Part shown: one piece after another, positions 45,001 through 64,000 of the stretch
Layout of the letters: each line of letters begins with the position of its first letter
How positions within the stretch are numbered: position 1 is the first letter of the stretch
Assembly (NCBI GenBank): GCA_964016885.1
Contig: OZ024741.1
Location: 397,916,001 to 397,980,000, forward strand
Direction of reading: 5' to 3'
Source: Eledone cirrhosa
Taxonomy: Eukaryota
DNA length: 64,000 bases
Translations under genes and position numbers: made by a program
The notes under the pieces: model-generated
Databases searched by the model: none
What the model was told of the DNA's origin: nothing
The model's input: only the letters and a program-made list of their open reading frames with translations

Positions 45001-46125
45001 CCCTCAATAGTCACCTAGTATCTACTAAACTATATCTAACACTCTCTACTCCCTCAATAGTCACCTAGTATCTACTAAACTACATCTTAGTCTCTCTAGT
45101 CCCTCAATAGTCACCTAGTATCTACTAAACTATATCTTAGTCTCTCTAGTCTCTCAATAGTCACCTAGTATCTACTAAACTATATCTTAGTCTCTCTAGT
45201 CCCCAAATAGTAACCTAGTATCTACTAAACTATATCTTAGTCTCTTTAGCCCCTCAATAGTCACCTAGTATCTACTAAACTATATCTTACACTCTCTACT
45301 CCCTCAATAGTCACCTAGTATCTACTAAACTATATTTTACACTCTCTACTCCCTCAATAGTCACCTAGTATCTACTAAACTATATTTTAGTCTCTCTACT
45401 CCCTCAATAGTCACCTAGTATCTACTAAACTATATCTTAGTCTCTCTATTCCCTCAATAGTCATCTAGTATCTACTAAACTACTTCTTAGTCTCTCTACT
45501 CCCTCAATAGTCACCTAGTATCTACTAAACTATATCTTAGTCTCCCTAGTCCCTCAATAGTCACCTAGTATCTACTAAACTATATCTTAGTCTCTCTACT
45601 CCCTCAATAGTCACCTAGTAGCTACTAAACTATATCTTAGTCTCTTCACTCCCTCAATAGTCACATAGTATCTACTAAACTACATCTTAGTCTCTCTAGT
45701 CCCTCAATAGTCAGCTATTATCTACTAAACTATATCTTAGTCTCTCTAGTCCCTCAATAGTCACCTAGTATCTACTAAACTATATGTTACACTCTCTACT
45801 CCCTCAATAGTCACCTAGTATCTACTAAACTATATCTTACACTCTCTACTCCCTCAATAGTCACCTAGTATCTACTAAACTATATCTTAGTCTCTATAGT
45901 CCCTCAATAGTCACCTAGTATCTACTAAACTATATCTTAATCTCTCTACTCCCTCAATAGTCACCTAGTATCTACTAAACTATATCTTACACTCTCTACT
46001 CCCTCAATAGTCACCTAGTATCTACTAAACTATATCTTATACTCTCTACTCCCTCAATAGTCACCTAGTATCTACTAAACTATATCTTACTCTCTCTAGT
46101 CCCTCAATAGTCACCTAGTATCTAC
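1..46125. repeat. Tandem satellite SatA, 50-bp monomer TCTTAGTCTCTCTA(G/C)TCCCTCAATAGTCACCTAGTATCTACTAAACTA(T/C)A, about 920 copies, continues beyond the left edge
   Basis: Uninterrupted head-to-tail 50-bp periodicity with occasional 49/51/52-bp and one 42-bp monomer. Consensus composition is T18 C14 A14 G4 with no CpG. It is rich in TAG/TAA and CTA/TTA, and the ORF track is empty across it. Confidence 0.99.
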
Positions 46126-46190
46126 CAACTTAAGTGTTACATTCCCTACTTTTCTCAACAGTCAATCTACTACTAAACTAATTACTCTAC
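46126..46190. repeat. Highly diverged terminal SatA monomer (array edge)
   Basis: TAAGTGTTACATTCCCTACTTTTCTCAACAGTCAATCTACTACTAAACTA aligns in phase with the monomer TATATCTTACACTCTCTACTCCCTCAATAGTCACCTAGTATCTACTAAACTA. Confidence 0.75.
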
Positions 46191-46592
46191 ACTGAAACAC
46201 AGAAAGTACATTCACTTCCAAGCCTGACGTCACCACTCAGACAATTGTGTTAACAATTATATCACAATCGACATAGTTTTCTTGTAAGCTTCTCACCTCG
46301 ACCATCTAATTTTATACATAGTTACCACTTAGCTCTATTGTATTTCTATTTAAATTGGAGACAGCAGACACTTATCTAAATGGTAGTCACAGCAGCAACC
46401 ATTAATTCTCTCAATGTCAGTGTTATATAACATTGTTGTAAATCTTTGCAGCCGACAACGATTGAATGATTGGATGATTGAATGACTAGTTTGTCATCTC
46501 TTGGTGAAACGAAATATAAAACAATGTTTACAATAAACACAGGAATATGGGGGGGGGGGTGCCAAAAATGTTTGGTCAAACGAAATAAAAAA

Positions 46593-46760
46593 CAATTTTA
46601 TGATAATTGTTTCTACTTTCGGCACAAGGCCAGCAATTACCCAGTGTATTACTGGTACTTTATTTTATCGACCCTGTAAGGATGAAAGGCAAAGTTAACC
46701 TCAGCGGGATTTGAACTCAGATCATAAAGAGACGTAATTCTTTGCTGCAATGCATGGCGT
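46593..46760 (-). mobile_element. 5'-truncated tRNA-derived SINE fragment (second family)
   Basis: The minus strand has a Pol III B box GTTCAAATCC (46707-46716), followed by CTTTGCCTTTCATCCTTACAGGGTCGATAAAATAAAGTACCAG and a tail AATTGCTGGCCTTGTGCC. I recall this body from abundant octopus SINEs. No A box is left. Confidence 0.7.
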
Positions 46761-46775
46761 CCTTTTATAATAATG

Positions 46776-47773
46776 TCGAAAGTCTTTCTTGAGCCTGGAG
46801 GCTCATCAGGCCAATGCTTATCTCGTTTCCATGGCATTAATTGGCTGAGAGTACAATACTCCCCCCTGGACAGGACGCCAGTCCATCGCAGGGTTAATAC
46901 TCCCCCAACTGTTGCTGGTACTCATTTTCAGCTTAGTATACTGGAGTAACATGAAATGAAGTGTTTTGCTCAAGAACACAACATACCACCCAGTCCAGGA
47001 ATTGAACCCACGACATTATGGTCAGAAGTCCAACACCCTTACCATTAGGTCACATACCACCCATCCCAGGAATTGAACCCACGACATTATGGTCAGAAGT
47101 CCAACACCCTTACCACTAGGTCACATACCACCCATCCCAGGAATTGAACCCACGACATTATGGTCAGAAGTCCAACACCCTTACCACTAGGTCACATACC
47201 ACCCATCCCAGGAATTGAACCCACGACATTATGGTCAGAAGTCCAACACCCTTACCATTAGGTCACATACCACCCATCCCAGGAATTGAACCCACAACAT
47301 TATGGTCATAAGTCTAACACCCTTACCACTAGGTCACATACCACCCATCCCAGGAATTGAACCCACGACATTATGGTCAGAAGTCTAACACCCTTACCAC
47401 TAGGTCACATACCACCCATCCCAGGAATTGAACCCACGACATTATGGTCAGAAGTCTAACACCCTTACCACTAGGTCACATACCACCCATCCCAGGAATT
47501 GAACCCACAACATTATGGTCAGAAGTCTAACACCCTTACCATTAGGTCACATACCACCCATCCCAGGAATTGAACCCACGACATTATGGTCAGAAGTCTA
47601 ACACCCTTACCACTAGGTCACATACCACCCATCCCAGGAATTGAACCCACGACATTATGGTCAGAAGTCTAACACCCTTACCACTAGGTCACATACCACC
47701 CATCCCAGGAATGGAACCCACAACATTATGGTCAGAAGTCTAACACCCTTACCATTAGGCCACACATCTCCAC
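46776..47773 (-). mobile_element. Full-length tRNA-Arg-derived SINE (MetaSINE/MESC-like body) with tandemly amplified head, flanked by a 10-bp TSD
   Basis: TSD TATAATAATG lies at 46766-46775 and 47774-47783. The minus strand starts GGAGATGTGTGGCCTAATGGTAAGG (A box), with head copies reading TTGGACTTCTGACC...GGGTTCAATTCC (tRNA-Arg-like, B box). The body is TGTTGTGTTCTTGAGCAAAACACTT...AAATGAGTACCAGC...AACCCTGCGATGGACTGGCGTCCTGTCCAGGGGGGAGTA, and the 3' hairpin is GAGCCT-CC-AGGCTC. The family assignment is from recall. Confidence 0.85.
46980..47760 (-). repeat. 11 x 71-bp tandem array of the SINE tRNA-like head (A box + B box per unit)
   Basis: Units start at 46980, 47051, 47122, 47193, 47264, 47335, 47406, 47477, 47548, 47619 and 47690. 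The unit is CACATACCACCCATCCCAGGAATTGAACCCACGACATTATGGTCAGAAGTCYAACACCCTTACCAYTAGGT. Confidence 0.97.
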
Positions 47774-47800
47774 TATAATAATGACAGGGGTAAATATCCA

Positions 47801-47886
47801 AAATGAAATATAAAACAATGTTTATAATAATTGTTTCTACTTTAGGCACAAGGCCAGCAATTTGAAGGGCAGAGGGAAGTCGATTA
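47801..47886 (-). mobile_element. SINE 3'-tail fragment plus flank, duplicate of 46578-46638
   Basis: AAATGAAATATAAAACAATGTTTATAATAATTGTTTCTACTTTAGGCACAAGGCCAGCAATT matches 46578-46638 and continues with GAGGGAAGTCGATTA, which is absent from the first copy. Confidence 0.65.
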
Positions 47887-47887
47887 A

Positions 47888-47998
47888 AGTTTGGCTTAGT
47901 GGTTAGGATGTTTGATTCACAAGCGTGAGGTTGTGAGTTCGATTCCCAGGCTGGGCAATGTGTTTTGTCCTTGAACAAGACACTTTATTTCATGTTGC
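47888..47998 (+). mobile_element. 3'-truncated tRNA-derived SINE (same superfamily as 46776-47773), plus strand
   Basis: A box TGGCTTAGTGG (47892-47902) and B box GTTCGATTCC (47937-47946), then TGTGTTTTGTCCTTGAACAAGACACTTTATTTCATGTTGC, which is homologous to the reverse complement of 46945-46985. Confidence 0.8.
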
Positions 47999-48170
47999 GC
48001 CTTCTGCTAGGACTTATGACTAGTAGATAGTATCAACAATTTGAAAGATCAATGGAAACATTGTTTCCTTGGTCCGATCTGATGAGTTCCACCCCACTCA
48101 GTAAGTGAATGAGGTTTTGGATCTTGTTGATTCATATATATTTATTGGTGAATATATTCATACATGATTT

Positions 48171-48545
48171 CATCATCATCATCATCATCATTGTTTTAAT
48201 GGCTGCTTTCCCTGCTAGCAAGGGATGGGCGGTCGCTACTGATCTCCCAAGCAATCCAGGGATCTGTTATCTTGCTTATGTGTGGTCTCACATTCTACCG
48301 AGTGCACAAGAGAGGTTGTTATGTCTTTGACACAACTGAGGATCCTCCCAACCTTTTGTTTGGTAAGCTTTCTATGGCTGGATACCCTTTCTATCACCAA
48401 CCACTTTACAGCATGTACTGAGTGCTTTTAATGTGTAGATCTCCAACACTAGAGAGGTTGACATGAGTGAGGTGTCCTTCTGACACTTTGTTTGGCAAGC
48501 TATCTATGGCAGGATGCCCTTCCTATCACCAACCACATATACTGG
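48171..48545 (-). mobile_element. Degenerate RTE-type LINE 3' UTR fragment with (ATG)n tail
   Basis: (CAT)7 at 48171-48191 followed by TTTTAATGGCTGCTTTCCCTGCTAGCAAGGG is the reverse complement of the 3' end at 51428-51475. TTCTATGGCTGGATACCCTTTCTATCACCAACCACTTTACAG is the reverse complement of 51308-51352 and occurs twice. Confidence 0.7.
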
Positions 48546-48650
48546 TTTGTGTAGTCTTATCTCTAACAGAAAGGAAAGACCAAGAGAATAAAGAAGAATT
48601 TGCACTCCAATATCTAACGAAAATATTTCTCTGGAAGTTCCCACGGTTGG

Positions 48651-48651
<1 letters not shown>

Positions 48652-48700
<49 letters not shown>
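48652..48700. repeat. (TA)n microsatellite, left flank of the hammerhead element
   Basis: Pure TA run of about 24 units. Confidence 0.98.
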
Positions 48701-48704
<4 letters not shown>

Positions 48705-48773
48705 TATGAAGAGAGAAGAAACATTTAGATATAATTAGTAATAAAATGTATCATACCTAAACTGTTCCTAAAT

Positions 48774-48861
48774 TCCTCGACTACGTAGTTTCGTGGCATA
48801 AACAAAAACAATATATCAAAGATATAGAGTCCTTGCGAGGTCTGCCGACTTATCAAGAGGA
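48774..48861 (-). ncRNA. Type I hammerhead ribozyme, copy 1 (U3-A8 core variant)
   Basis: The minus strand reads UCCUC-UUGAUAA-GUCGGCA-[44 nt]-UGCCAC-GAAA-CUACGUAG-UC^GAGGA. Helix I is UCCUC/GAGGA, helix II is GU(C)GGCA/UGCCAC, helix III is the palindrome ACUACGUAGU, and the cleavage triplet is GUC (cut between 48779 and 48778). Confidence 0.8.
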
Positions 48862-49364
48862 TACCTCATTTTACTAGTCTCAAGAACGCGTCTACACGAC
48901 GCGAGAAAGAATCCCAAAAGGCGGAGGGGGAGACAGTCACGCGATATAACGGTCGAGAAACGGAGCTAAGCCTCTTATAACCACGAAGAAAATACCACGG
49001 AGGCGGAGGGGGTATTCACATCGAGGCCGCAGAAGAGGTAGTGAAGAAGGCGAGAAGTATGAGTAATGGAAGCTTTCCAGTTGTCCCCACACTTCAAAGA
49101 TTGCTCGACCAGAGGGAGTTATTAATATATTTAGAAACACACAGATACATGCGGACACACACATATATACATGAATGCATCCGCACCCAACTGTGAGTTA
49201 AGGGTGCCAACTTCACCGATGTTGCTCAATGAATGACTGGGACAGACTAATTCAGTTTGAACCAGACTGAACCAGTATCAGAGTTAAAAATACATTATGA
49301 AGAGAGAAGAAACATTTAGATATAATTAGTAATAAAATGTATCATACCTAAACTGTTCCTAAAT

Positions 49365-49452
49365 TCCTCGACTACGTAGTTTCGTGGCATAAACAAAAAC
49401 AATATATCAAAGATATAGAGTCCTTGCGAGGTCTGCCGACTTATCAAGAGGA
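49365..49452 (-). ncRNA. Type I hammerhead ribozyme, copy 2 (identical)
   Basis: Same sequence as 48774-48861 shifted by 591 bp. The predicted cut is between 49370 and 49369. Confidence 0.8.
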
Positions 49453-49715
49453 TACCTCATTTTACTACTCTCAAGAACGCGTCTACACGACGCGAGAAAG
49501 AATCCCAAAAGGCGGAGGGGGAGACAGTCACGCGATATAACGGTCGAGAAACAGAGCTAAGCCTCTTATAACCACGAAGAAAATACCACGGAGGCGGAGG
49601 GGGTATTCACATCGAGGCCGCAGAAGAGGTAGTGAAGAAGGCGAGAAGTATGAGTAATGGAAGCTTTCCAGTTGTCCCCACACTTCAAAGATTGCTCGAC
49701 CAGAGGGAGTTATTA

Positions 49716-49918
49716 ATATATTTAGAAACACACAGATACATGCGGACACACACATATATACATGAATGCATCCGCACCCAACTGTGAGTTAAGGGTGCCA
49801 ACTTCACCGATGTAGTCATTCATTGAGCAACATCGGTGAAGTTGGCACCCTTAACTCACAGTTGGGTGCGGATGCATTCATGTATATATGTGTGTGTCCG
49901 CATGTATCTGTGTGTTTC

Positions 49919-49927
<9 letters not shown>
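49716..49927. repeat. Perfect inverted repeat, 98-bp arms with 16-nt spacer
   Basis: 49716-49813 is the reverse complement of 49830-49927. The spacer is AGTCATTCATTGAGCA (49814-49829). Confidence 0.95.
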
Positions 49928-50017
<90 letters not shown>

Positions 50018-50083
50018 GTGTATATATATATATATATATATGTTTATATATATATGTGTGTGTTTATATGTTTATATATATAT
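49922..50083. repeat. (TA)n microsatellite degenerating into TA/TG mix, right flank of the hammerhead element
   Basis: Pure TA run to 50000, then interrupted by CA/TG/TT variants. Confidence 0.97.
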
Positions 50084-50771
50084 GGTAATCTGGTAAATAA
50101 AACATAAAAAAGAATATTGCACGCAATAAGGTTCTTTTTAAATATCTCAAATAATTTGCTAGACAGGTGGGTGTGGAGGATCGGGTGTTGGATAGTGGGG
50201 GTGTAGGGAGCAGGGATGGAGAGCAGGGTTGGGGGTGAGGTGGGGAGCAAAGGTCGGGAAGTATCCCAGCAAAAAGGATTTCTTTCCCACAACAAACAAA
50301 CTCTGAAGATCAGACTTAAATGTTCCAGTCTTTACATTGACAAATGTCTGTAGTTTGTAAAATTGTTATTTGCAGCATTCTTCTCACTTTGTTGTAACCG
50401 ACACTAAAGACGTCTGCTATGGTTCTTAACCAAACTATTTAAATACTCCAGACTTCTTTGAATCTATCTTAAACACCGGAAAAACGATATTTTATTAAAT
50501 TTTCTTTTTCATTAACATTTTAATGAATTATTTTGGTGTTTGTTTAAAGAAATTCTTGTTTATTATTTAAATATAGTAATTTATTCTGCATAGTAATAGA
50601 GTCTGCAGGATGGTAGTTGGATAACAACCAATATTTTTACAATTATACAGCAGAATTTTGCTGGTTTTTGTTTTGTTTTTCTGTTACACCAACAATACAG
50701 TCTGAGAAAATATTCTAGAATGTTTTCATTATTCCTGAATTCAGTTCTCTATCATCACTTATGTCTTTCTG

Positions 50772-50772
<1 letters not shown>

Positions 50773-50870
<98 letters not shown>
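50773..50870. repeat. Compound (CT)n-(AT)n microsatellite
   Basis: About 30 CT units from 50773, then (AT)13 at 50845-50870. Confidence 0.97.
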
Positions 50871-51476
50871 CATGCGTGATGCGCATGAAAGACGACAGCT
50901 GTATAAAAACGTGCAGGCTGAGCAAAATTGATGGAAGTTACGGAGTAGGTAGACCCAGAAAAACCTGGGACAACATGATAAAGTCCAACCTTACACACTT
51001 ACACCTCTCTAAGACAATGTCACTGGATCGAGATCTTTGGCGCCACGCAGTAATACAGAAGACCCGCCTTGCCTACATGCAAAGTTAACCTACAGTCAGT
51101 AGGCCCCTCCAAACCAAACACACCGCAACCCACTACCCCACTCCATCCTCCCACTCCCGCCAACACCACCCTTTCTCTATAAAGTTATGTTGGTATCACA
51201 ACATCCAGTCCAAAGTAATGAGGTCGTGTAGGTGTCACGACAAAAAACACACAGTCCACGTTGTAATGTGGCCGTGTAGATAACACGGTAAAACGTTCCC
51301 AGTCCACACTGTAAACGTGGTTGGTGTTAGGAAAGGCATCCAGCCATAAAAACCTGCCAGATAGTCCTATACGAGCGAGACACGGTCACCCGAACAATCT
51401 TACCTCAAGTGGGACAATTCCCGACTAACCCATGCTAGCGTGGAAGATGGACATTAAACGAAGATGATGATGATAA
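50871..51476 (+). mobile_element. 5'-truncated RTE-clade LINE: ORF C-terminus + 3' UTR + (GAT)n tail
   Basis: The translation VMRMKDDSCIKTCRLSKIDGSYGVGRPRKTWDNMIKSNL...DRDLWRHAV carries the GRPxxxW and DRxxWR motifs typical of RTE ORF C-termini, with a stop at 51088. It ends in CCCATGCTAGCGTGGAAGATGGACATTAAACGAAGATGATGATGAT and is flanked by (AT)n on both sides. Confidence 0.85.
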
Positions 51477-51587
51477 TATATATATATATAAAGTCTTCAA
51501 CCTATTTGGTTGCTTTTCTTGGTGTCACACTTTATTACCTTTTCTGTTTACTCTGGACGATAATGTATTGACTTCTTGCTCCATTGA

Positions 51588-51787
51588 NNNNNNNNNNNNN
51601 NNNNNNNNNNNNNNNNNNNNNNNNNNNNNNNNNNNNNNNNNNNNNNNNNNNNNNNNNNNNNNNNNNNNNNNNNNNNNNNNNNNNNNNNNNNNNNNNNNNN
51701 NNNNNNNNNNNNNNNNNNNNNNNNNNNNNNNNNNNNNNNNNNNNNNNNNNNNNNNNNNNNNNNNNNNNNNNNNNNNNNNNNNNNNNN
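51588..51787. other. Assembly gap, exactly 200 N
   Basis: Run of 200 N, probably a fixed-size scaffolding placeholder, so the true distance is unknown. Confidence 0.99.
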
Positions 51788-54700
51788 CAGTTACTTCCCC
51801 TGTCAATTCTACTCTCCTCTCACAACCTATTACTTTACAGTTACTTCCCCTGTCACTTCTACTCTCCTCTCACAACATATTACATTACAGTTACTTCCCC
51901 TGTCACTTCTACTCTCCTGTCACAACCTATTACTTTACAGTTACTTACCCTGTCACTTCTACTCTCCTCTCACAACCTATTACATTACAGTTACTTACCC
52001 TGTCACAACCTATTACATTACAGTTACTTCCCCTGTCACAACCTATTACATTACAGTTACTTACCCTGTCACTTCTACTCTCCTCTCACAACCTATTACT
52101 TTACAGTTACTTACCCTGTCACTTCTACTCTCCTCTCACAATCTATTACATTACAGTTACTTACCCTGTCACAACCTATTGCATTACAGTTACTTCCCCT
52201 GTCAATTCTACTCTCTTCTCACAACCTATTACTTTACAGTTACTTACTCTGTCACAACCTATTACATTACAGTTACTTCCCCTGCCACTTCTACTCTCCT
52301 CTCACAACATTACATTACAGTTACTTCCCCTGTCAATTCTACTCTCCTGTCACAACCTATTACATTACAGTTACTTCCCCTGTCACAACCTATTACATTA
52401 CAGTTACTTCCCCTGTCACAACCTATTACATTACAGTTACTTCCCCTGTCACTTCTACTCTCCTCTCACAACCTATTACTTTACAGTTACTTCCCCTGTC
52501 ACTTCTACTCTCCTGTCACAACCGATTACTTTACAGTTACTTACCCTGTCACTTCTACTCTCCTCTCACAACCTATTATATTACAGTTACTTACCCTGTC
52601 ACAACCTATTACATTACAGTTACTTCCCCTGTCACAACCTATTACATTACAGTTACTTACCCTGTCACTTCTACTCTCCTCTCACAACCTATTACTTTAC
52701 AGTTACTTACCCTGTCACTTCTACTCTCCTCTCACAATCTATTACATTACAGTTACTTACCCTGTCACAACCTATTGCATTACAGTTACTTCCCCTGTCA
52801 ATTCTACTCTCCTCTCACAACCTATTACTTTACAGTTACTTACCCTGTCACAACCTATTACATTACAGTTACTTCCCCTGTCACTTCTACTCTCCTCTCA
52901 CAACCTATTACTTTACAGTTACTTCCCCTGTCACTTCTACTCTCCTCTCACAACCTATTACTTTACAGTTACTTCCCCAGTCACTTCTACTCTCCTCTCA
53001 CAACCTATTACTTTACAGTTACTTCCCCTGTCAATTCTACTCTCCTCTCACAACCTAATACATTACAGTTACTTCCCCTGTCACAACCTATTACTTTAGA
53101 GTTACTTCCCCTGTCACTTCTACTCTCCTCTCACAACCTATTACATTACAGTTACTACCCCTGTAAATTCTACTCTCCTCTCAAAACCTATTACTTTACA
53201 GTTACTTCCCCTGTCACTTCTACTCTCCTCTCACAACCTATTACTTTACAGTTACTTCCCCTGTCACTGCTACTCTCCTCTCACAACCTATTATATTACA
53301 GTTACTTCCCCTGTCAATTCTACTCTCCTCTCACAACTTATTACTTTACAGTTACTTCCCCTGTCACTTCTACTCTCCTCTCACAACATATTACATTACA
53401 GTTACTTCCCCTGTCACTTATACTCTCCTCTCACAACCTATTACATTACAGTTACTTACCCTGTCACTTCTACTCTCCTCTCACAACCTATTACTTTACA
53501 GTTACTTCCCCTGTCACTTCTACTCTCCTCTCACAACCTATTACATTACAGTTACTTACCCTGTCACAACCTATTACATTACAGTTACTTCCCCTGTCAA
53601 TTCTACTCTCCTGTCACAACCTATTACTTTACAGTTACTTACCCTGTCACAACCTATTACATTACAGTTACTTCCCCTGTCACTTCTACTCTCCTATCAC
53701 AACCTATTACTTTACAGTTACTTCCCCTGTCACTTCTACTCTCCTCTCACTACCTATTACATTACAGTTACTTCCCCTGTCACTTCTACTCTCCTCTCAC
53801 AACCTATTACTATACAGTTACTTCCCCTGTCACTTCTACTCTCCTCTCACAACCTATTACATTACAGTTACTTCCCCTGTCACTTCTACTCTCCTCTCAC
53901 AAGCTATTACTTTACAGTTACTTCCCCTGTCACTTCTACTCTCCTATCACAACCTATTACTTTACAGTTACTTCCCCTGTCACTTCTACTCTACTCTCAC
54001 AACCTATTACATTACAGTTACTTCCCCTGTCACTTCTACTCTCCTCTCACAACCTATTACATTACAGTTACTTCCCTGTCACTTCTACTCTCCTCTCACA
54101 ACCTATTACATTACAGTTACTTCCCCTGTCACTTCTACTCTTCTCTCACAACCTATTACTTTACAGTTACTTCCCCTGTCACTTCTACTCTCCTCTCACA
54201 ACCTATTACATTACAGTTACTTCCCCTGTCACTTCTACTCTCCTCTCACAACCTATTACATTACAGTTACTTCCCCTGTCACAACCTATTACATTACAGT
54301 TACTTCCCCTGTCACTTCTACCCTCCTCTCACAACCTATTACTTTACAGTTACTTACCCTGTCACAGCCTATTACATTACAGTTACTTCCCCTGTCACTT
54401 CTACTCTCCTCTCACAACCTATTACTTTACAGTTACTTACCCTGTCACAACCTATTACATTACAGTTACTTCCCCTGTCACTTCTACTCTCCTCTCACAA
54501 CCTACTACTTTACAGTTACTTACCCTGTCACAGCCTATTACATTACAGTTACTTCCCCTGTCACTTCTACTCTCCTCTCACAACATTACATTACAGTTAC
54601 TTCCCCTGTCACTTCTACTCTCCTCTCACAACCTATTACAATACAGTTACTTACCCTGTCACAACCTATTACATTACAGTTACTTCCCCTGTCACATCTA

Positions 54701-57700
54701 CTCTCCTCTCACAACCTATTACATTACAGTTACTTCCCCTGTCACTTCTACTCTCCTGTCACAACCTATTACTTTACAGTTACTTCCCCTGTCACTTCTA
54801 CTCTCCTCTCACAACCTATTACTTTACAGTTACTTCCCCTGTCACTTCTACTCTCCTCTCACAACCTATTACATTACAGTTACTTCCCCTGTCACTTCTA
54901 CTCTCCTCTCACAACCTATTACTTTACAGTTACTTCCCCTGTCACTTCTACTCTCCTCTCACAACCTATTACTTTACAGTTACTTACCCTGTCACAGCCT
55001 ATTACATTACAGTTACTTCCCCTGTCACTTCTACTCTCCTCTCACAACCTATTACTTTACAGTTACTTACCCTGTCACAACCTATTACATTACAGTTACT
55101 TCCCCTGTCACTTCTATTCTCCTCTCACAACCTATTACTTTACAGTTACTTACCCTGTCACAGCCTATTACATTACAGTTACTTCCCCTGTCACTTCTAC
55201 TCTCCTCTCACAACCTATTACAATACAGTTACTTACCCTGTCACAACCTATTACATTACAATTACTTCCCCTGTCACTTCTACTCTCCTCTCACAACCTA
55301 TTACATTACAGTTACTTCCCCTGTCACTTCTACTCTCCTCTCACAACCTATTACTTTACAGTTACTTACCCTGTCACAACCTATTACTTTACAGTTACTT
55401 CCCCTGTCAATTCTACTCTCCTCTCACAAGCTATTACTTTACAGTTACTTACCCTGTCACAACCTATTACTTTACAGTTACTTACCCTGTCACAACCTAT
55501 TACTTTACAGTTACTTCCCCTGTCACTTCTACTCTCCTCTCACAACCTATTACTTTACAGTTATTTACCCTGTCACAACCTATTACTTTACAGTTACTTA
55601 CCCTGTCACAACCTATTACTTTACAGTTACTTCCCCTGTCACTTCTACTCTCCTCTCACAACCTATTACATTACAGTTACTTCCCCTGTCACTTCTACTC
55701 TCCTCTCACAACCTATTACTTTACAGTTACATACCCTGTCACAACCTATTACTTTACAGTTACTTACCCTGTCACAACCTATTACTTTACAGTTACTTAC
55801 CCTGTCACTTCTACTCTCCTCTCACAACCTATTACATTACTGTTACTTCCCCTGTCACTTCTACTCTCCTCTCACAACCTATTACTTTACAGTTACTTAC
55901 CCTGTCACAACCTATTACTTTACAGTTACTTCCCCTGTCACTTCTACTCTCCTCTCACAACCTATTACATTACAGTTACTTCCCCTGTCACTTCTACTCT
56001 CCTCTCACAACCTATTACTTTACAGTTACTTACCCTGTCACAACCTATTACTTTACAGTTACTTCCCCTGTCACTTCTACTCTCCTCTCTCAACCTATTA
56101 CTTTACAGTTACTTACCCTGTCACAACCTATTACTTTACAGTTACTTCCCCTGTCACTTCTACTCTCCTCTCACAAGCTATTACATTACAGTTACTTCCC
56201 CTGTCACTTCTCCTCTCCTCTCACAACCTATTATTTACAGTTACTTACCCTGTCACAACCTATTACTTTACAGTTACTTCCCCTGTCACTTCTACTCTCC
56301 TCTCACAACCTATTACTTTACAGTTACTTACCCTGTCACAACCTATTACTTTACAGTTACTTCCCCTGTCACTTCTACTCTCCTCTCACAACCTATTACA
56401 TTACAGTTACTTCCCCTGTCATTCTACTCTCCTCTCACAAGCTATTACTTTACAGTTACTTCCCCTGTCACTTCTACTCTCCTATCACAACCTATTACTT
56501 TACAGTTACTTCCCCTGTCACTTCTACTCTCCTCTCACAACCTATTACATTACAGTTACTTCCCCTGTCACTTCTACTCTCCTCTCACAACCTATTACAT
56601 TACAGTTACTTCCCCTGTCACTTCTACTCTCCTCTCACAACCTATTACATTACAGTTACTTCCCCTGTCACTTCTACTCTCCTCTCACAACCTATTACAT
56701 TACAGTTACTTCCCCTGTCACTTCTACTCTCCTCTCACAACCAATTACATTACAGTTACTTCCCCTGTCACAACCTATTACATTACAGTTACTTCCCCTG
56801 TCACTTCTACCCTCCTCTCACAACCTATTACTTTACAGTTACTTACCCTGTCACAGCCTATTACATTACAGTTACTTCCCCTGTCACTTCTACTCTCCTC
56901 TCACAACCTATTACTTTACAGTTAATTACCCTGTCACAACCTATTACATTACAGTTACTTCCCCTGTCACTTCTACTCTCCTCTCACAACCTATTACTTT
57001 ACAGTTACTTACCCTGTCACAGCCTATTACATTACAGTTACTTCCCCTGTCACTTCTACTCTCCTCTCACAACATTACATTACAGTTACTTCCCCTGTCA
57101 CTTCTACTCTCCTCTCACAACCTATTACAATACAGTTACTTACCCTGTCACAACCTATTACATTACAGTTACTTCCCCTGTCACTTCTACTCTCCTCTCA
57201 CAACCTATTACATTACAGTTACTTCCCCTGTCACTTCTACTCTCCTGTCACAACCTATTACTTTACAGTTACTTCCCCTGTCACTTCTACTCTCCTCTCA
57301 CAACCTATTACTTTACAGTTACTTCCCCTGTCACTTCTACTCTCCTCTCACAACCTATTACATTACAGTTACTTCCCCTGTCACTTCTACTCTCCTCTCA
57401 CAACCTATTACTTTACAGTTACTTCCCCTGTCACTTCTACTCTCCTCTCACAACCTATTACTTTACAGTTACTTACCCTGTCACAGCCTATTACATTACA
57501 GTTACTTCCCCTGTCACTTCTACTCTCCTCTCACAACATTACATTACAGTTACTTCCCCTGTCACTTCTACTCTCCTCTCACAACCTATTACAATACAGT
57601 TACTTCCCCTGTCACAACCTATTACATTACAGTTACTTCCCCTGTCACTTCTACTCTCCTCTCACAACCTATTACATTACAGTTACTTCCCCTGTCACTT

Positions 57701-60700
57701 CTACTCTCCTCTCACAACCTATTACTTTACAGTTACTTACCCTGTCACAACCTATTACTTTACAGTTACTTCCCCTGTCACTTCTACTCTCCTCTCACAA
57801 CCTTTTACTTTACAGTTACTTACCCTGTCACAACCTATTACTTTACAGTTACTTCCCCTGTCACTTCTACTCTCCTCTCACAACCTATTACATTACAGTT
57901 ACTTCCCCTGTCACTTCTACTCTCCTCTCACAACCTATGACTTTACAGTTACTTACCCTGTCACAACCTATTACTTTACAGTTACTTCCCCTGTCACTTG
58001 TACTCTCCTCTCACAACCTATTACTATACAGTTACTTCCCCTGTCACTTCTACTCTCCTCTCACAACCTATTACATTACAGTTACTTCCCCTGTCACAAC
58101 CTATTACATTACAGTTACTTCCCCTCTCACAACCTATTACTTTACAGTTACTTACCCTGTCATTCTACTCTCCTATCACAACCTATTACTTTACAGTTAC
58201 TTCCCCTGTCACTTCTACTCTCCTATCACAACCTATTACTTTACAGTTACTTACCCTGTCACCTCTACTCTCCTGTCACAACCTATTACATTACAGTTAC
58301 TTCCCCTGTCACTTCTACTCTCCTCTCACAACCTATTACTTTACAGTTACTTACCCTGTCACAACCTATTACTTTACAGTTACTTCCCCTGTCACTTCTA
58401 CTCTCCTCTCACAACCTATTACATTACAGTTACTTACCCTGTCACAACCTATTACATTACAGTTACTTCCCCTGTCACTTCTACTCTCCTCTCACAACCT
58501 ATTACTTTACAGTTACTTCCCCTGTCACTTCTACTCTCCTCTCACAACCTATTACTTTACAGTTACTTCCCCTGTCACTTCTACTCTCCTCTCACAACAT
58601 AATAAATTACAGTTACTTCCCCTGTCACTTCTACTCTCCTCTCACAACCTAATACATTACAGTTACTTCCCCTGTCACTTCTACTCTCCTCTCACAACCT
58701 ATTACTTTACAGTTACTTCCCCTGTCACTTCTACTCTCCTCTCACAACCTATTACATTACAGTTACTTCCCCTGTCACAACCTATTACATTACAGTTACT
58801 TACCCTGTCACTTCTACTCTCCTCTCAGAACCTATTACTTTACAGTTACTTACCCTGTCACTTCTACTCTCCTCTCACAATCTATTACATTACAGTTACT
58901 TACCCTGTCACAACCTATTGCATTACAGTTACTTCCCCTGTCAATTCTACTCTCCTCTCACAACCTATTACTTTACAGTTACTTACCCTGTCACAACCTA
59001 TTACATTACAGTTACTTCCCCTGTCACTTCTACTCTCCTCTCACAACCTATTACTTTACAGTTACTTCCCCTGTCACTTCTACTCTCCTCTCACAACCTA
59101 TTACTTTACAGTTACTTCCCCAGTCACTTCTACTCTCCTCTCACAACCTATTACTTTACAGTTACTTCCCCTGTCAATTCTACTCTCCTCTCACAACCTA
59201 ATACATTACAGTTACTTCCCCTGTCACAACCTATTACTTTAGAGTTACTTCCCCTGTCACTTCTACTCTCCTCTCACAACCTATTACATTACAGTTACTA
59301 CCCCTGTCAATTCTACTCTCCTCTCAAAACCTATTACTTTACAGTTACTTCCCCTGTCACTTCTACTCTCCTCTCACAACCTATTACTTTACAGTTACTT
59401 CCCCTGTCACTGCTACTCTCCTCTCACAACCTATTATATTACAGTTACTTCCCCTGTCAATTCTACTCTCCTCTCACAACCTATTACTTTACAGTTACTT
59501 CCCCTGTCACTTCTACTCTCCTCTCACAACATATTACATTACAGTTACTTCCCCTGTCACTTCTACTCTCCTGTCACAACCTATTACTTTACAGTTACTT
59601 ACCCTGTCACTTCTACTCTCCTCTCACAACCTATTACATTACAGTTACTTACCCTGTCACAACCTATTACATTACAGTTACTTCCCCTGTCACAACCTAT
59701 TACATTACAGTTACTTACCCTGTCACTTCTACTCTCCTCTCACAACCTATTACTTTACAGTTACTTACCCTGTCACTTCTACTCTCCTCTCACAATCTAT
59801 TACATTACAGTTACTTACCCTGTCACAACCTATTGCATTACAGTTACTTCCCCTGTCAATTCTACTCTCTTCTCACAACCTATTACTTTACAGTTACTTA
59901 CTCTGTCACAACCTATTACATTACAGTTACTTCCCCTGCCACTTCTACTCTCCTCTCACAACATTACATTACAGTTACTTCCCCTGTCAATTCTACTCTC
60001 CTGTCACAACCTATTACATTACAGTTACTTCCCCTGTCACAACCTATTACATTACAGTTACTTCCCCTGTCACAACCTATTACATTACAGTTACTTCCCC
60101 TGTCACTTCTACTCTCCTCTCACAACCTATTACTTTACAGTTACTTCCCCTGTCACTTCTACTCTCCTGTCACAACCGATTACTTTACAGTTACTTACCC
60201 TGTCACTTCTACTCTCCTCTCACAACCTATTATATTACAGTTACTTACCCTGTCACAACCTATTACATTACAGTTACTTCCCCTGTCACAACCTATTACA
60301 TTACAGTTACTTACCCTGTCACTTCTACTCTCCTCTCACAACCTATTACTTTACAGTTACTTACCCTGTCACTTCTACTCTCCTCTCACAATCTATTACA
60401 TTACAGTTACTTACCCTGTCACAACCTATTGCATTACAGTTACTTCCCCTGTCAATTCTACTCTCCTCTCACAACCTATTACTTTACAGTTACTTACCCT
60501 GTCACAACCTATTACATTACAGTTACTTCCCCTGTCACTTCTACTCTCCTCTCACAACCTATTACTTTACAGTTACTTCCCCTGTCACTTCTACTCTCCT
60601 CTCACAACCTATTACTTTACAGTTACTTCCCCAGTCACTTCTACTCTCCTCTCACAACCTATTACTTTACAGTTACTTCCCCTGTCAATTCTACTCTCCT

Positions 60701-63700
60701 CTCACAACCTAATACATTACAGTTACTTCCCCTGTCACAACCTATTACTTTAGAGTTACTTCCCCTGTCACTTCTACTCTCCTCTCACAACCTATTACAT
60801 TACAGTTACTACCCCTGTAAATTCTACTCTCCTCTCAAAACCTATTACTTTACAGTTACTTCCCCTGTCACTTCTACTCTCCTCTCACAACCTATTACTT
60901 TACAGTTACTTCCCCTGTCACTGCTACTCTCCTCTCACAACCTATTATATTACAGTTACTTCCCCTGTCAATTCTACTCTCCTCTCACAACTTATTACTT
61001 TACAGTTACTTCCCCTGTCACTTCTACTCTCCTCTCACAACATATTACATTACAGTTACTTCCCCTGTCACTTATACTCTCCTCTCACAACCTATTACAT
61101 TACAGTTACTTACCCTGTCACTTCTACTCTCCTCTCACAACCTATTACTTTACAGTTACTTCCCCTGTCACTTCTACTCTCCTCTCACAACCTATTACAT
61201 TACAGTTACTTACCCTGTCACAACCTATTACATTACAGTTACTTCCCCTGTCAATTCTACTCTCCTGTCACAACCTATTACTTTACAGTTACTTACCCTG
61301 TCACAACCTATTACATTACAGTTACTTCCCCTGTCACTTCTACTCTCCTATCACAACCTATTACTTTACAGTTACTTCCCCTGTCACTTCTACTCTCCTC
61401 TCACTACCTATTACATTACAGTTACTTCCCCTGTCACTTCTACTCTCCTCTCACAACCTATTACTATACAGTTACTTCCCCTGTCACTTCTACTCTCCTC
61501 TCACAACCTATTACATTACAGTTACTTCCCCTGTCACTTCTACTCTCCTCTCACAAGCTATTACTTTACAGTTACTTCCCCTGTCACTTCTACTCTCCTA
61601 TCACAACCTATTACTTTACAGTTACTTCCCCTGTCACTTCTACTCTACTCTCACAACCTATTACATTACAGTTACTTCCCCTGTCACTTCTACTCTCCTC
61701 TCACAACCTATTACATTACAGTTACTTCCCTGTCACTTCTACTCTCCTCTCACAACCTATTACATTACAGTTACTTCCCCTGTCACTTCTACTCTTCTCT
61801 CACAACCTATTACTTTACAGTTACTTCCCCTGTCACTTCTACTCTCCTCTCACAACCTATTACATTACAGTTACTTCCCCTGTCACTTCTACTCTCCTCT
61901 CACAACCTATTACATTACAGTTACTTCCCCTGTCACAACCTATTACATTACAGTTACTTCCCCTGTCACTTCTACCCTCCTCTCACAACCTATTACTTTA
62001 CAGTTACTTACCCTGTCACAGCCTATTACATTACAGTTACTTCCCCTGTCACTTCTACTCTCCTCTCACAACCTATTACTTTACAGTTACTTACCCTGTC
62101 ACAACCTATTACATTACAGTTACTTCCCCTGTCACTTCTACTCTCCTCTCACAACCTACTACTTTACAGTTACTTACCCTGTCACAGCCTATTACATTAC
62201 AGTTACTTCCCCTGTCACTTCTACTCTCCTCTCACAACATTACATTACAGTTACTTCCCCTGTCACTTCTACTCTCCTCTCACAACCTATTACAATACAG
62301 TTACTTACCCTGTCACAACCTATTACATTACAGTTACTTCCCCTGTCACATCTACTCTCCTCTCACAACCTATTACATTACAGTTACTTCCCCTGTCACT
62401 TCTACTCTCCTGTCACAACCTATTACTTTACAGTTACTTCCCCTGTCACTTCTACTCTCCTCTCACAACCTATTACTTTACAGTTACTTCCCCTGTCACT
62501 TCTACTCTCCTCTCACAACCTATTACATTACAGTTACTTCCCCTGTCACTTCTACTCTCCTCTCACAACCTATTACTTTACAGTTACTTCCCCTGTCACT
62601 TCTACTCTCCTCTCACAACCTATTACTTTACAGTTACTTACCCTGTCACAGCCTATTACATTACAGTTACTTCCCCTGTCACTTCTACTCTCCTCTCACA
62701 ACCTATTACTTTACAGTTACTTACCCTGTCACAACCTATTACATTACAGTTACTTCCCCTGTCACTTCTATTCTCCTCTCACAACCTATTACTTTACAGT
62801 TACTTACCCTGTCACAGCCTATTACATTACAGTTACTTCCCCTGTCACTTCTACTCTCCTCTCACAACCTATTACAATACAGTTACTTACCCTGTCACAA
62901 CCTATTACATTACAATTACTTCCCCTGTCACTTCTACTCTCCTCTCACAACCTATTACATTACAGTTACTTCCCCTGTCACTTCTACTCTCCTGTCACAA
63001 CCTATTACTTTACAGTTACTTCCCCTGTCAATTCTACTCTCCTCTCACAACCTATTACTTTACAGTTACTTCCCCTGTCACTTCTACTCTCCTCTCACAA
63101 CCTATTACAATACAGTTACTTACCCTGTCACAACCTATTACATTACAATTACTTCCCCTGTCACTTCTACTCTCCTCTCACAACCTATTACATTACAGTT
63201 ACTTCCCCTGTCACTTCTACTCTCCTGTCACAACCTATTACTTTACAGTTACTTCCCCTGTCAATTCTACTCTCCTCTCACAACCTATTACTTTACAGTT
63301 ACTTCCCCTGTCACTTCTACTCTCCTCTCACAACCTATTACATTACAGTTACTTCCCCTGTCACTTCTACTCTCCTCTCACAACCTATTACTTTACAGTT
63401 ACTTACCCTGTCACAACCTATTACTTTACAGTTACTTCCCCTGTCACTTCTACTCTCCTTTCACAACCTATTACTTTACAGTTACTTACCCTGTCACAAC
63501 CTATTACTTTACAATTACTTCCCCTGTCACTTCTACTCTCCTCTCACAACCTATTACTTTACAGTTACTTACCCTGTCACAACCTATTACTTTACAGTTA
63601 CTTACCCTGTCACTTCTACTCTCCTCTCACAACCTATTACATTACAGTTACTTCCCCTGTCACTTCTACTCTCCTCTCACAACCTATTACTTTACAGTTA

Positions 63701-64000
63701 CTTACCCTGTCACAACCTATTACTTTACAGTTACTTACCCTGTCACAACCTATTACTTTACAGTTACTTACCCTGTCACAACCTATTACTTTACAGTTAC
63801 TTACCCTGTCACTTCTACTCTCCTCTCACAACCTATTACATTACAGTTACTTCCCCTGTCACTTCTACTCTCCTCTCACAACCTATTACTTTACAGTTAC
63901 TTACCCTGTCACAACCTATAACTTTACAGTTACTTCCCCTGTCACTTCTACTCTCCTCTCACAACCTATTACTTTACAGTTACTTACCCTGTCACAACCT
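51788..64000. repeat. Tandem satellite SatB with interspersed 50-bp (CAGTTACTTCCCCTGTCACTTCTACTCTCCTCTCACAACCTATTACWTTA) and 33-bp (CAGTTACTTMCCCTGTCACAACCTATTACWTTA) units, continues beyond the right edge
   Basis: Continuous head-to-tail units. The short unit lacks the 17 bp TTCTACTCTCCTCTCAC. The long consensus is C19 T19 A10 G2 and has no stop codon on the plus strand. Confidence 0.99.

Follow-up and report, generated by a model that had tools for sequence, protein, structure and literature searches.

Non-LTR retrozymes of metazoa were described by Cervera and de la Pena in 2020 (PMC7229834) and in a 2026 preprint by Li, Clavereau and Pollet (10.64898/2026.07.22.740005), the invertebrate sampling of which comprised four species. 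Use of retrozyme circles as templates by the enzymes of Penelope-like elements (PLEs) was put forward as a hypothesis in PMC7229834. The PAc protein, from a Poseidon element of Anolis, cuts and extends both strands, displays two internal starts and is predicted to be dimeric; its ribozyme is assisted by protein, and its insertion proceeded without need for cleavage and made use of uncut RNA (PMC11167929). The origin of inverted, one-side-tailed PLE insertions was called open in both PMC3846280 and PMC8557442. Hammerheads of metazoan PLEs cleaved poorly in vitro (PMC4209133), and eight out of nine predicted Xenopus dimers displayed no cleavage (2026 preprint).

The locus considered here is situated in a window of 64,000 nucleotides from Eledone cirrhosa (contig OZ024741.1), this term designating the whole stretch of DNA analysed. 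It belongs to a family of the known retrozyme type, being composed of mobile, tandem, non-coding units with one hammerhead each, and it is distinguished by the variant core of its putative ribozyme and by the length of its tail.

The window copy and its family

The element was organized with a tandem period of 591 bp. The original prediction of a near-identical tandem was confirmed, segments 48700-49222 and 49291-49813 displaying two mismatches in 523 bp, which were located at 48877/49468 and 48962/49553. Both were private to the window copy: the C of 49468 was encountered in none of 144 passes of the family, and position 48962, a G in the window copy, was an A in 128 out of 128 family passes. 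Absence of coding capacity and insertion in (TA)n also held, with no stop-to-stop frame longer than 86 aa inside the element and a TA run on each side (Table 1). The inverted terminal segment was correctly recognized as an inversion; what had been missed is that it represents another arm, ending at the second of two fixed and probable start sites. This arm corresponds to unit positions 537 to 424 (counted from 48702) and stops 55 nt short of site S, and the left end of the element is one of the two fixed family ends, not a random break. The unit length, initially considered unusual, is in fact inside the 51-972 bp reported in the 2026 preprint.

Table 1. Coordinates of the features of the retrozyme copy in the window
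Feature	Position	Strand	Remark
(TA)25, left half of target microsatellite	48652..48701	.	TA run
S arm, 1,112 nt = 1.88 units; 3' end (hammerhead sense) at fixed site S, 48702 = unit position 1	48702..49813	-	2,040 exact TA-S junctions genome-wide
Type I hammerhead motif, copy 1	48774..48861	-	predicted cut 3' of C17 at 48779
Predicted 591-nt monomer between two predicted cut sites	48779..49369	-	prediction
Internal copy of the 'tail', 168 nt from site S (49293) to site L (49125)	49125..49292	-	two family ends
Second copy of the type I hammerhead motif, with C17 at 49370	49365..49452	-	fold drawn on minus strand
Near-perfect hairpin from arm junction: 103-nt arms, 98%, 16-nt loop	49711..49932	.	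arm inversion
Inverted L arm of 114 nt, reaching from unit 537 to its 3' end at fixed site L (unit position 424)	49814..49927	+	986 exact TA-L junctions of window subfamily
(AT)n, right half of target microsatellite	49922..50083	.	TA run

The retrozyme sits in a 5-kb island flanked by two satellite blocks. Positions 1-46125 of the window were occupied by a 50-bp satellite (923 copies) and positions 51788-64000 by a 33/50/83-bp composite satellite, and a 71-bp repeat (11 copies) was found at 46981-47764. By eye, a tRNA-like SINE head with A-box-like and B-box-like words could be distinguished at 47890-47990; ARAGORN detected no tRNA gene at 46000-52000.

Searching the 3.0-Gb genome with the unit yielded 975 candidates, and the 40 of them that were scored were nearly all 98-100 % identical. 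Exact 20-mers of the hammerhead core numbered 6,067 genome-wide. Besides the exact TA junctions at unit positions 1 and 424 (Table 1), internal (non-junction) versions of these two positions occurred 4,781 and 1,530 times, respectively. Eighty regions were taken from the pattern lists in positional order (C1:0-68.5 Mb) and 48 more were picked for the 424 end; extrapolation led to an estimate of ~3,400 loci genome-wide if C1 is typical. Copies were spread over many contigs with differing flanks and displayed no LTR-type ends, being bounded by S or L in (TA)n; the flanks were TA runs, which would mask any target site duplication. One two-armed insertion was itself tandemly duplicated with an identical junction, 2,554 nt apart (L043:2475-6325). 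An older sister family (L162-L180; 2,565 candidates) was ~80 % identical, with a unit of ~595 nt, the same S and L ends and a conserved hammerhead. The view of a young, multi-copy, non-coding and hammerhead-bearing family of the PLE type was upheld. In two of four independent sequencing runs (X1 and X5) the unit was recovered as a closed contig of 621 and 620 nt, respectively, at a depth of ~8; these contigs are no evidence for a circle because a head-to-tail tandem gives the same result.

The hammerhead motif

The type I hammerhead announced twice on the minus strand, with sites 591 nt apart, was recovered in the folds drawn for both copies (Table 1). Its core is non-canonical, which had been overlooked: the first box reads UUGAUAA (U3-A8) and not CUGAUGA, and the canonical C3-G8 word CUGANGA was absent from both strands of the element. 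In copy 1, stem I is formed by pairing of 48861-48857 with 48778-48774 and is followed by the UUGAUAA box (48856-48850), stem II (48849-48793), which holds an insert of ~55 nt, the GAAA box (48792-48789) and a palindromic stem III (48789-48780). Type I features were otherwise present, namely U3-A8 as a published variant, GAAA, G10.1-C11.1, A15.1-U16.1, an NUH triplet and stems I to III. Rfam returned no hammerhead match at the gathering threshold nor at E<=10; weak matches to miRNA models corresponded to the inversion hairpin and to TA runs and were discarded. Screens based on CUGANGA, like Rfam, therefore overlook a family with more than 6,000 hammerhead cores.

Between the young and the sister family, one out of 44 hammerhead columns differed, against 94 out of 557 other columns (Fisher P 0.008), and this sole change retains stem I as a U-G pair. 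Only 11 of 557 sliding windows were as conserved as the hammerhead. A single locus or unconserved helices, named originally as counter-evidence, were thus not what was found: copies numbered in the thousands and the helices were maintained. The case for a ribozyme rests on this conservation because two-sided covariation was weak (4 out of 152 pairs in a 15-sequence alignment).

Stem III amounted to +1.5 kcal/mol as a hairpin and to -12.9 as a duplex, and its palindrome is typical of metazoan hammerheads working as dimers. The monomer circle of the hammerhead strand folded at -177, against -133.5 +/- 5.7 for 40 shuffles (z = -7.6) and -134.6 for the other strand. Relative to the ensemble, the active fold was predicted to cost ~9 kcal/mol when placed in the circle, 7-9 within long linear RNA and 2.4 locally. 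According to these models, such an uphill fold could protect the circle or could mean poor cleavage. A long-range helix over the cut site was predicted in both families (alignment columns 268-278 with 528-538); by covering this site, it may keep the circle from re-cleaving. On the strength of its conserved motif, the hammerhead is probably active in vivo.

Fixed ends and haplotypes of the insertions

Intact copies displayed a 3' end (hammerhead sense) at either of two sites, S (unit 1) or L (unit 415-428), located 77 and 245 nt 3' of the predicted cut, respectively, and hence 168 nt apart. As to circularly permuted ends, for which the original prediction had proposed a test, 5' ends were scattered and 3' ends of intact copies were confined to these two sites. 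The 131 insertions consisted of 54 one-armed (30 L and 24 S) and 77 two-armed copies. In 72 of the latter, including one later duplicate (L043), an S arm and an L arm were joined head-to-head; neither S+S nor L+L was encountered, and the five others (L057, L089, L093, L202 and L204) displayed an end elsewhere. Independent choice of sites would make about half of the pairs mixed.

Arm statistics were based on 69 two-armed and 51 one-armed copies, after exclusion of L047, L093, L059 (which contains a gap), the duplicate of L043 and two copies that were not contiguous. Arms reached 4.9 units, the longest being 2,904 nt. They crossed the predicted cut site 246 times and terminated no more than 6 nt away from it in four cases, and no indel was found around this site (unit 71-83) in 77 loci. 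Among the two-armed L arms reaching 140 nt, six out of 56 ended at 160-168 nt, immediately before S, where 0.78 were expected (P ~1.6e-4, an approximate value since the width was picked after seeing the data and a constant drop-off rate was assumed). None of 26 one-armed L copies ended at 140-172 nt. No mirror pile-up at L was displayed by S arms, of which one out of 43 ended at 395-430 nt. Short L arms were encountered in 14 of 44 two-armed versus two of 19 one-armed copies, which is not significant (P 0.11), and a stall after a full round (555-600 nt) in one-armed copies gave a mixed picture (five of 18 for L, one of 15 for S). Arm junctions (n=69) displayed overlaps, mostly of a few nt, in 44 cases, blunt joining in 10 and inserts in 15.

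Insertions were remarkably uniform internally. Substitutions amounted to 0.29 % within an arm, to 0.50 % (same round) and 0.31 % (different round) between arms, and to 1.89 % between insertions; for the first 80 regions, the values were 0.40 % within and 2.26 % between insertions. Common alleles were uniform inside an insertion in 451 out of 478 cases, and a rare variant was present in every pass of 34 of the 93 multi-pass insertions. Priming of a heterogeneous linear multimer at neighbouring sites should leave each round of one arm with the same variants as the corresponding round of the other. Of the 54 rare variants informative in this respect, 14 were present throughout the rounds and 40 were restricted to one arm; none was shared in register. 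Exceptions were L106, L232 and L057, carrying variants that started mid-array and then persisted, and L216, the arms of which differed at two sites, one of them a common allele.

These haplotypes are best accounted for by a bottleneck at the monomer stage and subsequent re-multimerisation, for which a circle would be the simplest route. Reverse transcription for more than one round on a circular template had been proposed from the 1.9-mer of the window; multi-round copying of a monomer gained support from the family-wide uniformity, the 1.9-mer alone being insufficient. Linear cut monomers were rejected as templates, since arms run on past the predicted cut. The template was probably a circle, and it is likely that both arms were copied from one RNA.

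Candidate helper, proposed mechanism and relation to known systems

A search for GIY-YIG domains yielded 10,595 candidates, 150 of which were scored. The original prediction had called for an autonomous PLE with RT and GIY-YIG domains sharing the hammerhead. A coding PLE with a U3-A8 hammerhead, an ACCGGU stem III and TA flanks in its terminal repeat was indeed found; no significant alignment to the unit was obtained (score 89 against one PLE end; shuffles 104 +/- 10), and for the 50 GIY-YIG loci compared, the matches listed included none between the unit and a pLTR. The short and long ends of the coding PLE were 82 and 146 nt past the cut, the long end reading TTTCTAATAT as compared with TTTCTAAATAT in the young retrozyme. 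Its two-armed copies with both ends seen followed the S+L rule in 11 out of 11 cases (L050, L087, L146, L150, L152, L179, L182, L184, L185, L186 and L191; L192 was left out on account of a gap). U3-A8-like cores were present in at least four PLE families of the genome, so that this core was rejected as a unique tag of one helper. U3-A8-like cores combined with the ACCGGU palindrome characterised several further PLE families (loci L157, L112, L153, L159, L143 and L144), two of which displayed a short end and a tail with a ACTCGTGT-like motif. As no significant alignment was obtained and U3-A8-like cores are common to several PLEs, a helper of this clade is likely and may belong to any of these families. 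From the Zn-finger-like CxxxxCxxC linker between RT and the C-terminal EN, the candidate helper is provisionally placed in the Neptune/Nematis clade.

A 775-aa RT-EN frame was open in 11 of 12 PLE copies fetched. A defined in vitro test is thereby made possible, since this PLE, young and with intact RT-EN frames, resides alongside the retrozyme. In the coding PLE (e.g. G000:C2:375819500-375829000), an ORF1 of ~400 aa overlaps this frame in the -1 frame, and the heptamer U UUU UUA, which we take to be of slippery-site form, was located at the overlap in all five copies printed (L181, L182, L184, L190 and L192). Programmed -1 frameshifting is thus likely at this junction, as judged from its sequence. 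The 35-nt hammerhead of this PLE occurred in 10,767 exact copies; in the first 100 of them, inverted hammerhead pairs were often only 80-130 nt apart, so that the two arms often stop just 5' of the hammerhead. Two candidates were rejected: selenocysteine at an in-frame TGA of PLE copies, the TGA being upstream of the RT frame and not in EN, and a retrozyme-PLE chimera at L047, where a retrozyme arm abuts a separate small two-armed PLE insertion with microhomology.

Mobilisation of the family by a PLE is very likely. We lean, with less assurance, towards the fuller reading of a non-autonomous retrozyme moved by a PLE RT/GIY-YIG protein and twin-primed at (TA)n on one RNA, the predicted 591-nt circle. 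Transcripts of a tandem copy would undergo cleavage at two hammerheads, likely acting as a dimer through the palindromic stem III, and the product would be closed by ligation into a circle. Insertions in (TA)n were seen to end at S or L and never at the predicted cut; S and L would be internal start sites of RT, one per target strand. RT would then travel round the circle, displacing the strand ahead of it, and synthesis of the L arm would at times halt at the S primer. The two 5'-truncated cDNAs would then be joined head to head by microhomology, which would result in the inverted structure, and one-armed copies would represent events with a single strand extended. In its most specific form, which is put forward tentatively and could well be wrong, the family would record twin-primed rolling-circle reverse transcription, a PLE dimer loading a ribozyme-made RNA circle at two dedicated starts, one per strand. 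If true, this would explain retrozyme arrays and inverted one-side-tailed PLE insertions together and supply a matched helper-and-circle pair for testing.

S arms should stall at L on a single circle carrying both primers and should not do so on a linear multimer, so that stalling at S and not at L speaks for PLE twin priming on uncut linear multimers of homogeneous source arrays, with no circle and the hammerhead being a weak or protein-binding fold. The dispensable ribozyme of PAc, which takes uncut RNA (PMC11167929), the inactive Xenopus dimers of the 2026 preprint and the energetically disfavoured active fold point the same way. This possibility nevertheless appears unlikely: it requires many separately homogenised sources, given the insertions with their own uniform rare variant, as well as a length-rebuilding step for the 3-5-unit arrays present in several lineages. 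Variants were never shared in register, and no long array was found among the 131 insertions.

The 16-nt loop of the window copy would suit one priming event, the inverted arm being made by fold-back or self-priming of the cDNA and EN trimming at the other site, ideas found in PMC3846280 and PMC8557442. Inner ends lay within 16 nt in nine of 69 copies (4.1 expected, P 0.017), but within 40 nt there was no excess (12 versus 9.1 expected, P 0.19); as 60 of the 69 junctions were unlike fold-back and S arms often contained sequence absent from the L arm (1,112 versus 114 nt in the window), this origin is very unlikely. Hardly more plausible, indeed slightly less so, are arms from two RNA molecules in a protein dimer with subunits committed to S and L. 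The predicted dimer of PAc (PMC11167929) and the arms of L216 and L108, which differ at shared alleles, would agree with it; arms were nevertheless as similar as rounds of one arm, far more than different insertions, and a stall at S requires a shared template. A satellite locally amplified by unequal exchange, or an assembly artefact, is least credible of all. The window consists mostly of satellite DNA and local duplication also yields uniform arrays, but copies lay on dispersed contigs with different flanks, fixed ends and inverted arms, the unit and the L junction were found in independent runs, and the fixed-end rule contradicts it.

Earlier publications already cover PLE-dependent retrozymes, the proposal of circles as templates, U3-A8 cores, tails restricted to one side, pLTR inversion and the occurrence of two internal starts. 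Like metazoan non-LTR retrozymes, the family consists of non-coding tandem units with one type I hammerhead each, low GC, a self-paired monomer and co-resident PLEs; it differs by its U3-A8 core, the ~55-nt insert of stem II, short dispersed two-armed insertions in (TA)n and two fixed ends. Circles and cleavage were demonstrated for metazoan retrozymes, whereas this family is known here from its sequence. No two-end rule for retrozymes was found in the available parts of PMC7229834 or the 2026 preprint. With EN+ PLEs (PMC3846280, PMC8557442) the family shares 5' truncation, partial tandems, head-to-head inversion, extension at one end, a bias for (TA)n and the lack of a visible target duplication. 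Unlike them, the retrozyme has no ORF and its tail is 168 nt long, versus 30-40 bp; its one-sided rule was counted (72 out of 72), and repeated rounds of a single short unit make up both arms.

PAc resembles it in its AT-rich target, in the extension of both strands (which for the retrozyme would follow from the arms) and in two internal starts 3' of the cut, at +111-118 versus a cut at +26, i.e. ~85-92 nt, as compared with 77 and 245 nt. In contrast to the retrozyme, PAc is autonomous, with a C3-G8 core and a linear template in vitro, and a strand preference for the start site is unreported in the available text (PMC11167929). The minimal hammerheads of the Schistosoma PLE Cercyon (PMC4209133) likewise display U3-A8 covariation, a palindromic helix III and a dimer model; they are mostly single motifs in coding PLEs, whereas in the retrozyme the motif, with its long stem II, belongs to a tandem unit devoid of coding capacity.

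In the available parts of the literature searched (subscription journals, Repbase, Dfam and supplements being outside its scope), the one-site-per-arm rule, the stall and haplotype evidence for a monomer template were not found, nor was a combination of retrozyme, rolling circle and twin priming. The family represents a countable genomic record of the PLE insertion reaction, with strict S+L pairing, a stall at the second primer and one haplotype shared by arms and rounds. In L1 twin priming, two target strands are primed on one RNA, leaving an inverted 5' part and junction microhomology; the 3' poly(A) and a variable internal site of a linear RNA are used. In the retrozyme, by contrast, neither site varies, both are internal, and overlap between the arms extends over several rounds.
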